This document shows positions 32,810-42,751 of a stretch of 52,172 nt of DNA, one piece after another; the stretch's first letter is position 1, and the number at the start of each line of letters is the position of its first letter. Below the pieces are notes generated by a model. It did no database searches. It was given only the letters and a program-made list of their open reading frames with translations, and was not told the DNA's origin. This stretch comes from a virus (lineage: Duplodnaviria > Caudoviricetes). Position numbers and translations under genes: made by a program. The stretch is taken from positions 1-52,172 of IMG/VR virus record IMGVR_UViG_3300027734_000102, one strand, 5' to 3'.

Positions 32810-33589
32810 TTACGCACTTCTACCCCCTAGGGCAGCCTCGATCTTCTCTTTGGGTATCTCTTTCATCTCCCAGTCGTATACTGGAAGGCCAAGTTCAAGG
32901 ATCACCTCAGCGTATCGAGTGTTGATGAAATTTCCCTTGTTGACGTCGTCCTTCACAATACCCGGAAACCCAATCAGGTCGACGATGATGCCCACCGGTT
33001 TCCAGTTGTCGACGATGAACTCACTGCGACGGGACTCATATGGATCGAAAGAGTCCCTATCAAGGATGTACTTGCCACTTCCGCCGCCCCAGGCCTCGGG
33101 CCCCCTGAAAGAGAGGGGACGCTTTGGGACGCCTGAAGATGCGTACTTCTTTAGTGCCTCTGGTGGAGCCTGCCCGTGGTACCCGCTGTTCACAGTGTTC
33201 ATGTCGTTCGAGGCAAGAGTTGTCCTGCCCTTCACGATGACTCCGACAGTGCCCCATGAGCTTGAGAACTTGTTTGAACCCGGGAGGTATCCGCTCGTTG
33301 AGATCTCGTTCTTTCCTGAGAGATTGAGGAAGTTCCTCAGCTTGTTCTCCCAATCGAGGCCACCGGTCCAGTGGATTTTGATGAGGGAGTCGATGAATCT
33401 GTGGTCAGCCTCGGCAGCCCATGCCCTTTTCACATCCCTCGCCATTGGCTTGTTGACGAGGCTTCCCTGCCGAGGGTCCTCAAAGGTGGGATCGTCGAGG
33501 TTAGCCATGTAGTCGATGCCCTTCGTGCGGGACTGGAATCCTTTGAGATCCTCGAGAAGAATTTCACGGACTAATTTGCGAAGCTGCAT
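32810..33589 (-). CDS. tag-bearing protein (family B)
   Basis: MQLRKLVREILLE; WAAEADHRF, KIHW, NEISTSGY, SSGVPKRP, SEFIVDNW. Confidence 0.8.
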   Translation of the reverse strand: MQLRKLVREILLEDLKGFQSRTKGIDYMANLDDPTFEDPRQGSLVNKPMARDVKRAWAAEADHRFIDSLIKIHWTGGLDWENKLRNFLNLSGKNEISTSGYLPGSNKFSSSWGTVGVIVKGRTTLASNDMNTVNSGYHGQAPPEALKKYASSGVPKRPLSFRGPEAWGGGSGKYILDRDSFDPYESRRSEFIVDNWKPVGIIVDLIGFPGIVKDDVNKGNFINTRYAEVILELGLPVYDWEMKEIPKEKIEAALGGRSA

Positions 33590-40007: not shown

Positions 40008-42751
40008 GGCAGTCTCTTCATGAAACTCTCGATCGCCTGCCAGTCACCCTCAGCCAGGGGCTTATTGTTATCGAATATGTTGTGGTATCTCTCGGGGTCT
40101 GAGCCTGCATTCATTCCGAGGTCAAGCCAGGCGTTCACCACAGTGCGGGTGGGCTTCCAGATCTCTAAGGAGTAGGCATTGGAGACCTTGCCCCAACCGT
40201 TGCGAAGGAGGGTCCTCATGGCGACCGATCTCACCTCTGACTGAATGTCGGAGTTGTAGTATAGTTCTCCCATGTTGGAGAACTCCGGGATTGTTTTGCC
40301 TGTGAGAGGACGCCCACCCTGTCTCTTCCAATCGTCCATCTTCTTGCCCATTGGAGACTTGGCATCATAGACAGCCTGCTCCTCTGGTGTCCTGGGTGGT
40401 GGAGGGTCTATGGGACCGCACTCCACTTCAAGAGCGGCCTCAAACTGTGGCATGAGTGACGGGTTCCTGCCTATGTGGAAGGCTGCCCACTCCCCATGGT
40501 CTCGCTGTTCGGGATTGTAATGGTACACTCCATCGGGATCGATCCAACCCACAGAGTGGGTGGTAGACGATGTAAAACCGGAGGGAGGAGATGACTCATT
40601 GAGTATGCCTCTCACGAGACTCCTGACGAGTGACTCGTTCTTTTCGAACCTCTTCACTTTGCTCAGCACGTCTTTCCTCGTTTCCTGATATTCATCGCCG
40701 GTGCCTCCGACCTTACCCGTGTCTACGACCTTCGGGTAAGCCTTCTTCGGGTACTCCTTCCACCTCTTGATGAACTTCGGTGGGATCCATCCACGGTAGG
40801 CGAATGTTCCCTTACGCGTGATGCCTGTGGTGAGGAATGACATTATCTTCGAGTCAATGTCCTTCATCAGGGCGCTGAACTCTTCGTCCTTTGCCCATTC
40901 GAGTCCAGCCTCCGGAGCCTCACCAATGTCCTTGCCATAGGCTACTGTGGTGTTAGCAAGGCGGACTGTGCGTATGATGTTCTTGAAGTGCTGTTCCCTT
41001 GCGATGGTGTGCTTCCCACCGGGCTCGGAAGTCGTTGTAACATTCCAACCGTAAGTCTCAGGGTTCCACGTCTCGTTCTTCTTGATGCGGTCAGACTGGG
41101 TGAGCGTGTATTCTCTATCGAGATTGAACCAGCTCAGGTTGTCCTCGTCAGGAACTATTCTGGTGATGTCTGGAATCTCGACCTTGAGGATGAGGGGCTT
41201 CCCACCATACCAGATGGCCGACCTGGTTGCGTAGTTCTCTGCAGTGTGCGGGTCCATGGTGAAGTAGAGGTTCTTCGAGGAGTAGCCTTCGATCTGGTCA
41301 CCGTACGCGTCTTCGAACTTTCCAGGAAGCATCCCTTTCTTCTCGATATCCGGCCAGCGTGCTGTAGTTGTGCCGTGATATGCCATAATTGTTCCCCGCA
41401 CGCCACCGACTGCAATGTCCGTGGTCCTGGGCGCGCTCCCAGCCTGACCTATCGTCTGGCCCTCATATTTGTCGTCTGGTGAGAAAATCTTGTAATCGGG
41501 TGTCACTCTTGGGTCGACCTGCATGAGGTGATTGAAGAGCTTCTTGAGAGCAATCTCCTTGCCGACAAAGGCAACGTCCCCCGACGGCATGACGTATGAC
41601 TTGTCCTTGACTGTCTTTTTCGGTGTGCTGGCTCCCCTTCGAGACTGGTGATCTGTCCAAGTGGCGTCAAGGCTAACGCGCTTATTGACAGTGTCAACGA
41701 GGAGGTACTCGAAATTAGCGCCTACGGGACCATAGTATATGTGAGTGTCAGGGATGTCGGAAGGCTTCTTCCAATTTTCGCCAGCGCTGCCAGGAACTCT
41801 CTTGAGATACTTGAACGTGGAGTCCTTGTACTCTTCCTTCCTCGGCGAGCTCTTCTCATAGAGACCGAGAGCAACTAGCTCCTCTGCCTTCCTTAGCTGC
41901 TCAGGTGTGAGGTCGTAGTCCTTTCCTGAGCAGCGCCTGTAATCTTCAGAAATTGAACCGGGAATTTCGACTGGTTCGCCGCCAGGCCCGACTGCATAGT
42001 AGAGCACATAACCTGCCGCTATTGGACGGGCATAGTATTTGGATTCTGTAGGGACTCGGTCATTAGGAGCGTTCCGTAGCTCCAACAGCAGAACTGTCTC
42101 TCTTATCAGATCTCTTAAGACTATAGAAGCTCTAGACTCTCTCTTGTTAAATGAAAATGTGCTTGCCATCTCAACCTGCTTTTGTAGTTCTTCTTGTGTG
42201 GCCTTTGGAGATCTTCCCCAGTCGGGCGTGGACCTGTCACTGAGATAGCTAGCCGAATCTATCTCGTAGGCATCTCTTGGTATCGCGCCGTGGGTGTATA
42301 GGATTCCCGTGTGCGATAGACCGGGCACGACCCACACGGGAACACCAGAGTCGATGCCAGCCCTACACGCCTGCTTGATGGAGACCTTGTCATCTCTCTC
42401 ACCAATCATTACGTAGCTACCAAACGGAAGCTTTGGCGCCGGCGCAGTGGTCCATCCCCTGTAGATCGCCGGCGCCAGCATCACTACGCGTGGCATCTCA
42501 TCAATCATCTTCAATCTGACTGCCTGCGCCAAGATTGCAGCGCCCCTGCTGTAGGCAACTATGTTGTCGTCGTCGGGATCAGCCACAGCGTCATTGATCG
42601 CCTTGGCGACCTTGATCACCTCGTCAAGCTCAACTGGCCCGCCCTTGTGGAGCGCCGGTCCCATGAGACCAAGCGTACGCATCAGGTCGAACTTGTCCAT
42701 GCCGGCACCGTGGATGCCTATGTTCTCTTTCAAGCGCTTTGACTTTCTCAT
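40004..42751 (-). CDS. 915-aa multi-module protein: alpha/beta hydrolase, tag, ART-like region, tag, WxxPxG module
   Basis: VAYSRGA nucleophile elbow with ..DDKV..SH; IVLRDLIRETVLLLE; AYHGT...LYFT....AENYA; ESLVRSLVRGILNE; GWIDPDG...GWGKVS. Confidence 0.75.
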   Translation of the reverse strand: MRKSKRLKENIGIHGAGMDKFDLMRTLGLMGPALHKGGPVELDEVIKVAKAINDAVADPDDDNIVAYSRGAAILAQAVRLKMIDEMPRVVMLAPAIYRGWTTAPAPKLPFGSYVMIGERDDKVSIKQACRAGIDSGVPVWVVPGLSHTGILYTHGAIPRDAYEIDSASYLSDRSTPDWGRSPKATQEELQKQVEMASTFSFNKRESRASIVLRDLIRETVLLLELRNAPNDRVPTESKYYARPIAAGYVLYYAVGPGGEPVEIPGSISEDYRRCSGKDYDLTPEQLRKAEELVALGLYEKSSPRKEEYKDSTFKYLKRVPGSAGENWKKPSDIPDTHIYYGPVGANFEYLLVDTVNKRVSLDATWTDHQSRRGASTPKKTVKDKSYVMPSGDVAFVGKEIALKKLFNHLMQVDPRVTPDYKIFSPDDKYEGQTIGQAGSAPRTTDIAVGGVRGTIMAYHGTTTARWPDIEKKGMLPGKFEDAYGDQIEGYSSKNLYFTMDPHTAENYATRSAIWYGGKPLILKVEIPDITRIVPDEDNLSWFNLDREYTLTQSDRIKKNETWNPETYGWNVTTTSEPGGKHTIAREQHFKNIIRTVRLANTTVAYGKDIGEAPEAGLEWAKDEEFSALMKDIDSKIMSFLTTGITRKGTFAYRGWIPPKFIKRWKEYPKKAYPKVVDTGKVGGTGDEYQETRKDVLSKVKRFEKNESLVRSLVRGILNESSPPSGFTSSTTHSVGWIDPDGVYHYNPEQRDHGEWAAFHIGRNPSLMPQFEAALEVECGPIDPPPPRTPEEQAVYDAKSPMGKKMDDWKRQGGRPLTGKTIPEFSNMGELYYNSDIQSEVRSVAMRTLLRNGWGKVSNAYSLEIWKPTRTVVNAWLDLGMNAGSDPERYHNIFDNNKPLAEGDWQAIESFMKRLP

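Follow-up and report, generated by a model that had tools for sequence, protein, structure and literature searches.

A short tag shared by stand-alone genes marks the joints of fused and reshuffled modules in an uncultured phage

A viral contig of 52,172 bases from IMG/VR (Caudoviricetes; IMGVR_UViG_3300027734_000102; the whole stretch analysed is hereafter called the window) encodes three long proteins whose modules are joined by the same short peptide that heads many of its other genes. The contig is a fragment with a CheckV completeness of 26%. Among its genes are those for the two subunits of a T4-type topoisomerase II, and the nearest relatives of the large subunit belong to uncultured huge phages of 635–642 kb (51–53% amino-acid identity). 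The peptide, here called the tag, is an amphipathic helix of ~15 residues with the consensus [E-S]-x-L/I-R-x-L/I-I/V-R-E-M/T-L-L-x-E. It begins about twenty unrelated genes of the window and occupies every joint of the three fused proteins, which sit in a co-oriented minus-strand array from about 30.3 to 42.8 kb (Table 1). Comparison with homologues shows that modules have been fused in frame again and again, with the tag as the exact point of joining, and that relatives carry many other orders. The explanation to which we incline, with modest confidence, is that a T4-type capsid-targeting and prohead-protease tag, ending in L/I-x-E, has come to serve as the joint in fusions of cargo enzymes.

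The fused proteins are of two designs. A first-pass annotation had described two open reading frames (ORFs) of 423 and 396 amino acids (aa) as a module with a WxxPxG motif (W) joined through the tag to a second domain (B), and an ORF of 915 aa as three modules separated by two tags; its coordinates and sequence strings were all reproduced, on the minus strand. The W-tag-B layout is borne out by alignment of the 423-aa and 396-aa proteins, which share 41% identity over 364 columns (E 2e-87), with W, tag and B collinear. The B domain also occurs alone after an N-terminal tag, as had been noted for a 259-aa protein; from its tag onward, this protein is 45% identical to residues 161–353 of the 423-aa one (E 3e-49), and the Glu of the tag is invariant in an alignment of 12 stand-alone tag-B homologues. 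The 915-aa protein does divide into three modules, M1-tag-M2-tag-W, and both of its tags (SIVLRDLIRETVLLLE and ESLVRSLVRGILNE) match the pattern described below. The second of them is the same tag that closes M2-only homologues.

A relaxed tag pattern, [LIVM]R.[LIVMA][LIV]R.[LIVMFT][LIV].{1,3}E, was run over the six frames of the window and matched 17 sites, all four internal ones included, against a mean of 0.07 in 100 shuffles (maximum 1). A strict pattern gave 14 matches, where 50 shuffles averaged 0.02 (maximum 1). Within the three fused proteins, the four pattern sites compare with a mean of 0.002, and four were reached in none of 2000 residue shuffles. A hidden Markov model (HMM) built from the 14 strict sites placed 20 of 1038 stop-to-stop ORFs above the reversed-sequence maximum of 7.4 bits, 14 of these ORFs being seeds and six not. 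The three ESL-type internal tags scored 1.0–2.5 bits in this whole-window scan, under that maximum; they are taken as tags, of which they are diverged copies, because of the pattern test and because homologues have canonical tags at equal positions (ESTVRRLVREMLLED in P0014, LRSLIREMLAE in P0057 and LRTLIREMLLQE in P0061). On either strand, the tag is mostly found no more than a few residues from a start codon. As the pattern requires, Glu closes all 17 pattern sites, and the residue two places before it is L, I, V or M, except in LRDLIRETVLLLE, which ends in L-L-E. Some tag ends diverge among 25 aligned copies, for example LVND at 14451. An AAA_33 kinase, a GNAT protein, a NUDIX hydrolase and a DUF6886 protein are all tagged, so one tag heads unrelated folds, and families B, W and M2 are likewise among the tag-headed proteins. 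Four tag strings were absent from the papers covered by a full-text search of main texts. Two further ORFs on the plus strand have tag-like N-termini: a 242-aa ORF (16135–16863) with an extra pattern match (LRLVVRGILRE at 16156) that the HMM seeds missed, and a 407-aa, mainly helical protein (28326–29549) with the N-terminus EEHLLREVIALE, a hydrophobic stretch near the C-terminus and a weak PHROG match to 'internal head protein' (phrog_5750, E 2.7e-4).

Metagenomic homologues of the fused proteins were compared for the identity and order of their modules. The 423-aa protein had 26 homologues at E ≤ 0.001, nine of which are full W-tag-B proteins (P0001–P0008 and P0014); P0009 (93% identity) and others consist of tag-B alone. 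P0016 reads W-MGES-X-MGES-tag-B, with an extra module of ~120 residues between two MGES motifs at the joint of W and B, and P0011 has a canonical tag followed by 26 unrelated residues and then by the B domain from EDLAGF; by their sequences, both look like products of recombination at the tag. The 915-aa protein had 43 matches, the window's own protein counted among them, and their module sets vary. Some are tag-M2 proteins closing in a tag (P0047, P0052, P0054, P0056, P0059, P0062 and P0063), and 14, P0029 included, read tag-M2-tag-W. The full M1-tag-M2-tag-W order recurs in P0028, and P0038 reads M1-tag-M2-tag-W remnant-B. M1 is N-terminal in P0028, P0033, P0038 and P0039 and has moved behind M2 in P0045, which reads tag-M2-tag-M1-tag. 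Joined behind M2 through a tag are also a homologue (A') of the 230-aa gene that lies between the 915-aa and 396-aa ORFs (P0057, P0058 and P0061), a GNAT domain (P0044) and uncharacterised modules (P0065–P0068), and in P0064 a degenerate tag links M2 to B'', the third type of B-related paralogue found in the window.

The retrieved proteins, 69 in all, were then scanned with an HMM whose only seeds were the 13 N-terminal tags of the window; the reversed-sequence maximum of this model was 1.3 bits. Hits above this control lay at N-termini (39), between modules (33) and past the last recognised module (13), and none lay inside a module; a very loose regular expression also matched one helix inside M2 (LKKLFKHL...). 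Tags above the control were present at 33 of 37 junctions, and the other four junctions are visibly tag-like. As the 69 proteins are mutual relatives, the independent evidence is not the 33 tagged junctions but the at least ten junction types that they represent: W/B, M1/M2, M2/W, M2/M1, M2/A', M2/B'', M2/W-remnant/B, M2/GNAT, M2 with two uncharacterised modules, X/B and HEAT-like/W. Sequence identity also breaks at the tag, W being 97% (P0007) and 93% (P0008) identical versus 55% and 49% for B, and the B domain of P0009 is 95% identical behind a different N-terminal tag. The first-pass annotation had proposed that the tag marks fusion boundaries and that the modules are swappable, with other orders in relatives; both proposals are supported by the homologues and by the predicted structures described below.

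The same annotation had placed the WxxPxG module at both N- and C-terminal positions, and BLASTP, profile–profile comparison and a bridging protein agree that the two forms are homologous. The C-terminal W of the 915-aa protein matches the N-terminus of the 396-aa protein by BLASTP (E 3e-5 over 49 residues), and the two W types match each other as profiles (probability 78%, E 1.7e-5, 103 columns). A search with tag 2 plus W against 1.84 billion representatives returned 17 proteins at E ≤ 0.001. One of these is the bridging protein, P0083, which the C-terminal W retrieved at E 8.8e-5 and which has a match of E 3e-17 to the N-terminal form; it consists of four tandem W repeats, each of which matches the N-type W of the 396-aa protein (E 3e-17 to 3e-10). 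Of the same 17, P0072, P0074, P0075, P0076 and P0078 are stand-alone tag-W proteins, and P0077 reads HEAT-like domain-tag-W. Because of these homologues, W can be said to occur alone behind a tag, first without a tag, last behind a tag and in tandem. A word-based search among proteins of 81–259 residues gave no stand-alone N-type W, which is weak evidence of absence.

Domain boundaries at the tags, a check that had been proposed for the fusions, were found in AlphaFold models as low-confidence tag helices between folded domains. In the model of the 423-aa protein (predicted local distance difference test (pLDDT) 81, predicted template modelling score 0.57, 28 sequences), both W and B are folded, W having block pLDDT values mostly of 80–95 over residues 11–150, with dips to 73 and 70. 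The tag forms a helix (158–169) in the two lowest-confidence blocks of its region (68 and 55); the three residues of coil that separate it from the helix 173–183 include E171. In the model of the 915-aa protein (mean pLDDT 74, 43 sequences), M2 and W are well folded, the C-terminal W with block pLDDT values of 71–92 from residue 731, and M1 is poorly modelled (29–81 by block). Tag 1 falls in the helix 204–221, within a stretch of pLDDT below 50 (189–222), with E224 in coil; tag 2 falls in the helix 702–718, with pLDDT below 50 at 713–720, and E719 is the first coil residue. Burial of a tag in a domain core was not seen, as judged from pLDDT and secondary structure, without coordinates or predicted aligned error. 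The mean pairwise identity of the internal tags is 0.50–0.59, versus 0.51–0.59 for the domain cores, a degree of conservation that a decaying linker would not be expected to keep.

What the tag might do at these joints is suggested by the signals of known head cargo. Published accounts report that L/I-X-E is the motif after which T4 gp21 cleaves and that internal proteins are loaded by means of an N-terminal capsid targeting sequence (CTS) of 10 residues (PMC9026906), that the internal proteins of T-even phages are diverse defence proteins with only that targeting sequence in common (PMC3012670), that the ADP-ribosyltransferase Alt is a T4 protein packaged in the head (PMC9503650), and that gp53 and gp54 of SPN3US have identical 15-residue N-termini containing cleavage motifs (PMC5694885). 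Like the CTS of IPI-III and Alt, which gp21 removes, the tag is a short N-terminal peptide common to otherwise unrelated, polymorphic proteins (PMC9026906, PMC3012670, PMC5694885). It also ends in L/I-x-E, the motif of gp21; the tagged set includes an enzyme resembling ADP-ribosyltransferases (M2, by a weak fold match), just as the T4 set includes Alt, and an S77 protease is encoded in long related phage records. The likeness of the tag itself is limited to length, position and the L/I-x-E ending: it has about 15 rather than 10 residues and seems unrelated in sequence to the CTS. The window further differs from T4 in having ~20 tagged genes in 52 kb rather than a handful, and in tags that stand also at module joints and C-termini.

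We propose that the tag would dock its protein to the prohead scaffolding core and that a T4-type (Peptidase S77) prohead protease would cut after its terminal L/I-x-E. The window would then hold an arsenal of tag–enzyme cassettes, the products of which would be loaded in the head and injected with the DNA. Internal tags would stay active, whether by being cut to free the modules within the head or by docking from an internal position, and modules without a tag of their own (W in W-tag-B and M1 in the 915-aa protein) would be carried in by the fusion. A scan for related loci with the single 396-aa protein as query found nothing, and an alignment-based query found seven loci. Peptidase_S77 was present in three of five related records carrying family B, namely all three long ones (257, 278 and 318 kb; 76–93% complete), and in neither of two related fragments that are 12–20% complete. 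In the 318-kb relative (G002), 11 tag-like ORFs reach at least 9.0 bits, versus a reversed-sequence maximum of 5.9, and four small tagged ORFs lie directly downstream of its major head protein and protease genes. The S77 gene of this record is at 159.0–159.7 kb. Elsewhere in the same record, away from the head genes (84438–86383 and 96506–97608), two paralogues of 318–335 aa and three small ORFs carry a tag of the form MKIT..QLRxLIRE. We infer from these likenesses that the tagged proteins would be packaged and cleaved. Cleavage, implied by the word 'polyprotein' in the first-pass annotation, is plausible, being consistent with the L/I-x-E ending, the Glu in coil and the T4-type proteases in the long related records.

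Several observations weigh against this proposal. The window, as a 26%-complete fragment, has no S77 protease or head genes, and the protease-bearing relatives are only 34–45% identical in family B. Many M2-only homologues end in a tag with nothing behind it, which a pure cleavage-site role leaves unexplained, and W and M1 carry no tag when they come first, whereas the described T4 signal is N-terminal. To our knowledge, T4 does not package proteins of kinds that are tagged here, such as a polynucleotide-kinase-like kinase or a NUDIX hydrolase, and some 20 tagged genes in 52 kb would make a very large cargo set. The assignment of M2 to the ADP-ribosyltransferases is weak, with no Foldseek match at E ≤ 0.001. 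A clear tag is missing at the joint of GNAT and M2 in P0069, where there is a degenerate remnant only, at the joint of the N-terminal domain and M2 in locus L031, and between the four tandem W repeats of P0083. Packaging and cutting are, moreover, proposed on the basis of sequence and predicted structure.

A gene pair on the plus strand suggests how fusions may arise. The ORF at 15054–15653, next to the tagged kinase, encodes a HAD-type phosphatase (DxDxT motif, by eye; weak Pfam match to Acid_phosphat_B, E 5e-4) that has no N-terminal tag and ends in a C-terminal one (TESRLRQIIRNSLL). The gene at 15698–16108 opens with another copy of this tag ~100 nt downstream of the first (tag positions 15615 and 15719), and runs of 11 nt and 5 nt are identical between them. 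A small deletion running from the closing tag of one gene to the opening tag of its downstream neighbour would fuse the two in frame, and such deletions, or recombination between tag-coding stretches, would be the likely source of fusions and fissions; the pair would thus illustrate how deletion or recombination fuses genes in frame. Because cassettes begin with a tag and some (M2 and the HAD phosphatase) also end with one, whole modules could be inserted, deleted or permuted in frame. The tag may tentatively be seen as a dual-purpose joint, serving capsid loading and cutting in the protein and the in-frame insertion, deletion and permutation of modules in the gene, a combination that we consider possible but doubtful. 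If it holds, huge phages would own a domain-level cassette system with which to build and rebuild injected effector polyproteins, and M2, flanked by two tags, would be a mobile in-frame unit that has landed before at least eight different partners. As a separate observation, the kinase and the phosphatase, within 14448–16108 on the plus strand, look like a split polynucleotide-kinase-like pair.

Other explanations of the tag were weighed. It could be an uncut docking or address helix for a destination other than the capsid (a shared scaffold, a chaperone or a replication compartment), in which case the fusions would be ordinary multidomain enzymes and the internal tags conserved helical linkers inherited from formerly separate tagged genes. 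A position-independent binding helix suits tags at N-termini, joints and C-termini better than a leader peptide does, the tagged AAA_33 kinase, NUDIX hydrolase and HAD phosphatase are of kinds not known as head cargo, and the window has no head genes. Pure docking, however, would have no need of the [LIVM]-x-E in which nearly all copies end, nor of a Glu placed in coil at the helix end, as it is at all three modelled tags; the long relatives have a protease of the family that would fit, and in one of them small tagged ORFs stand beside the head genes. We regard the docking helix as unlikely.

It is distinctly improbable that the tag matters mainly as DNA, as a short homology block for in-frame cassette recombination that encodes a peptide without function. 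The identity breakpoints at the tag in P0007, P0008 and P0009, the tags on both sides of M2 and the identical 11-nt and 5-nt runs in the phosphatase pair would all fit a DNA block. The codons of conserved residues, however, vary freely: over 25 copies, the first Arg is encoded by CGC (12), AGA (4), CGT (3), AGG (3), CGA (2) and CGG (1), and the second Arg by five codons. Since the conserved residues use many synonymous codons, it is the peptide and not the DNA that is conserved; selection therefore acts on the tag peptide, and extended exact matches in the DNA are mostly lacking. The conservation of the internal tags at the level of domain cores speaks against a functionless peptide as well. 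The tag as a nucleic-acid element, whether of DNA or RNA, was rejected on the codon variation.

Internal tags could also be translation starts at the Met of MGESL, within nested genes from which B is also made separately, and Met-Gly does stand directly before the tag in both W-tag-B proteins (MGESLV and MGESLI). The ORF starts are preceded by strong Shine-Dalgarno sequences (ggagg before the ATG of the 396-aa ORF at 39318, aaggag before the GTG of the 423-aa ORF at 34835, and one or the other before the ATG of the 259-aa ORF), whereas no such site precedes the internal Met codons at 38874 (396-aa ORF) and 34370 (423-aa ORF). Both tags of the 915-aa ORF lack a Met, and homologues retain the fused frame over 41–99% identity. 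Internal starts are therefore very improbable, and the Met-Gly is most readily explained as a relic start codon from a time when the gene was separate. An origin of the fusions in errors of metagenomic assembly, in frameshifts or in gene calling is almost certainly wrong: the window is but one contig from an uncultured virus, yet the same architectures are found again in independent proteins of several origins, with full W-tag-B in nine of the 26 matches to the 423-aa ORF, M1-tag-M2-tag-W in P0028 and tag-M2-tag-W in 14 further matches to the 915-aa ORF.

The nature of the proposed cargo was examined by profile and fold comparison. Pfam gave no family at E ≤ 0.1 and no peptidase domain in the 915-aa, 423-aa and 396-aa proteins, and nothing meaningful in ten array proteins (DUF1421 in the 230-aa ORF, E 0.098, is under the Pfam cut-off); PHROGs gave two families of unknown function only, both in M2 (residues 455–537). 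The M2 columns YHGT 458–461, Y496, E505 and E525 are invariant or nearly so. The top PDB matches of the 915-aa model in Foldseek were Tpt1/KptA, tankyrase/PARP and pertussis S1 (E 0.05–0.3, none at E ≤ 0.001); the matches to M2 reach a probability of 1.0 over 70–75 columns, with an rmsd of 1.6–3.9, and are centred on the invariant YHGT. From these models, M2 probably holds an ADP-ribosyltransferase-superfamily domain around YHGT 458–461; the superfamily is marked by a catalytic triad of His/Arg, Tyr/Ser and Glu. Searched against PDB sequences at E ≤ 1, a profile of the M2 alignment matched only a spectrin chain (E 0.028), which was regarded as a chance match. No fold match at E ≤ 0.001 was obtained for the 423-aa model in PDB or BFVD (best BFVD E 0.0044); its best PDB match is OspC3 (E 0.019, TM 0.2), and many ADP-ribosyltransferase folds are among the weak matches. 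B and W thus appear as orphan folds without a significant fold match, and 'effector' is a presumptive label for the modules. A scan for loci related to M2 gave only three, all distant (32–36% identity). One of them, L031 (7368–9110, plus strand), lies in a viral contig of high GC content and encodes a remote homologue of M2 fused to an N-terminal domain that bears HHMTI and PHVTVAT; we take these two H-x-T-like motifs to recall 2H phosphoesterases.

The fused proteins can be set beside known systems. Polyvalent proteins, as described in two papers (Iyer et al. 2017, PMC5512222; 2022, PMC9503650), likewise have enzymatic domains fused in ever-changing combinations, are predicted to be packed in the virion and injected, and commonly contain ADP-ribosyltransferase domains; here, each fused ORF has two or three modules, and homologues show at least ten junction types. 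Release of polyvalent proteins is credited in the same texts to embedded metallopeptidase domains, which are frequent in but not strictly defining of them, and none was found here by Pfam. The word 'linker' does not occur in the main text of PMC5512222, whereas here every joint is the tag of stand-alone genes. In phiKZ, 201phi2-1 and SPN3US, families of head-protein paralogues are cut after Glu at short motifs and their propeptides have several cleavage sites each, according to PMC5694885 and PMC9026906. In the passages cited from these papers, the motif is S/A-x-E or A-x-E, the propeptides are mostly of more than 100 residues, and a repeated tag between different catalytic modules is not described (PMC5694885, PMC9026906). 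Family B also sets the window apart from giant phages, as the 259-aa B protein had no tblastn match in 50,697 phage records. Against the same records, megablast with 33564–42751 gave no match, and the tagged 23-residue N-terminus gave none at E ≤ 10, being too short a query for such a database. Polymorphic toxin systems offer another parallel, in which a pre-toxin junction motif (such as VENN in CdiA) bounds exchanged variable modules and is kept by orphan cassettes. As here, a short conserved motif lies at the boundary of exchanged modules; pre-toxin motifs, however, connect a single, constant delivery part with a single, variable toxin tip, whereas here any module can follow any other and the motif is also an N-terminal leader. 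The T4 CTS and polyvalent proteins were already known, and what is new is one CTS-like tag that both heads stand-alone genes and occupies every fusion joint.

If the capsid-tag proposal is right, uncultured huge phages would deliver dozens of enzymes to the cell alongside their DNA, and one short peptide would serve as address label, cutting site and splice point for interchangeable modules. The T4 paradigm of a few internal proteins would be widened into an arsenal built by combination, and polyvalent proteins would gain a concrete release mechanism, the head protease. A simple sequence rule would then predict virion cargo in metagenomic phage genomes, the three widespread orphan modules B, W and M2 would be candidate early-acting host-takeover or anti-defence enzymes, and the tag could be used as a loading tag to engineer cargo into such phages.

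Table 1. Fused proteins, their parts and other genes discussed, in window coordinates.
Feature	Coordinates	Strand	Details
915-aa ORF	40004-42751	minus	M1-tag-M2-tag-W
M1 module of 915-aa ORF	42128-42751	minus	residues 1-208; no N-terminal tag; no Pfam match
Internal tag 1 of 915-aa ORF	42080-42127	minus	SIVLRDLIRETVLLLE; residues 209-224; pattern match; HMM 14.0 bits, itself a seed
M2 module of 915-aa ORF	40637-42079	minus	residues 225-705
Internal tag 2 of 915-aa ORF	40595-40636	minus	ESLVRSLVRGILNE; residues 706-719; pattern match
C-terminal W module of 915-aa ORF	40007-40594	minus	residues 720-915
230-aa tag-headed gene	39315-40007	minus	between 915-aa and 396-aa ORFs
396-aa ORF	38128-39318	minus	W-tag-B
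W of 396-aa ORF	38875-39318	minus	
Tag of 396-aa ORF	38827-38868	minus	ESLIRNIVRSLLRE
B domain of 396-aa ORF	38131-38826	minus	
182-aa tag-headed paralogue	37583-38131	minus	same family as 31485-32090
B-related tag-headed paralogue, third type	36374-37252	minus	likely start 37123; tag 37058-37099
B-related tag-headed paralogue	35568-36434	minus	likely start 36377; tag 36339-36383
B-related tag-headed paralogue	34876-35571	minus	tag 35533-35574
423-aa ORF	33564-34835	minus	W-tag-B
W of 423-aa ORF	34365-34835	minus	
Tag of 423-aa ORF	34323-34364	minus	ESLVRNLIRSILSE
B domain of 423-aa ORF	33567-34322	minus	
259-aa ORF	32810-33589	minus	N-terminal tag MQLRKLVREILLE (33551-33589) and B domain alone
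Glycosyl hydrolase family 46 (chitosanase-type) protein	29550-30254	minus	Pfam E 8.7e-22; adjoins tagged array
AAA_33 kinase, tagged	14448-15017	plus	
DUF6886 protein, tagged	45033-45686		
GNAT, tagged	45640-46107		
NUDIX hydrolase, tagged	46720-47256		

The array contains further tagged genes besides the fused ones. The three B-related paralogues have ADH..F...IHW and EIS motifs in common, as read from their translations, and the family of the 182-aa paralogue also includes the plus-strand genes at 7768, 9418 and 10068. The adjoining glycosyl hydrolase may be a lysis or wall-degrading enzyme. A 363-aa ORF at 30334–31425 (minus strand) has a weak tag-like N-terminus (MTLRKIIAEEL) and no Pfam match at E ≤ 0.01; its DGHHRW motif recalls, in our reading, ParB/sulfiredoxin-type nucleases. 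Endonuclease or homing-endonuclease genes are present on the plus strand at 2185–2853, 3633–4358 and 10827–11618 (PHROGs E 2.3e-19, 7.5e-16 and 5.9e-41, respectively), the last of them directly after the plus-strand tagged paralogues.

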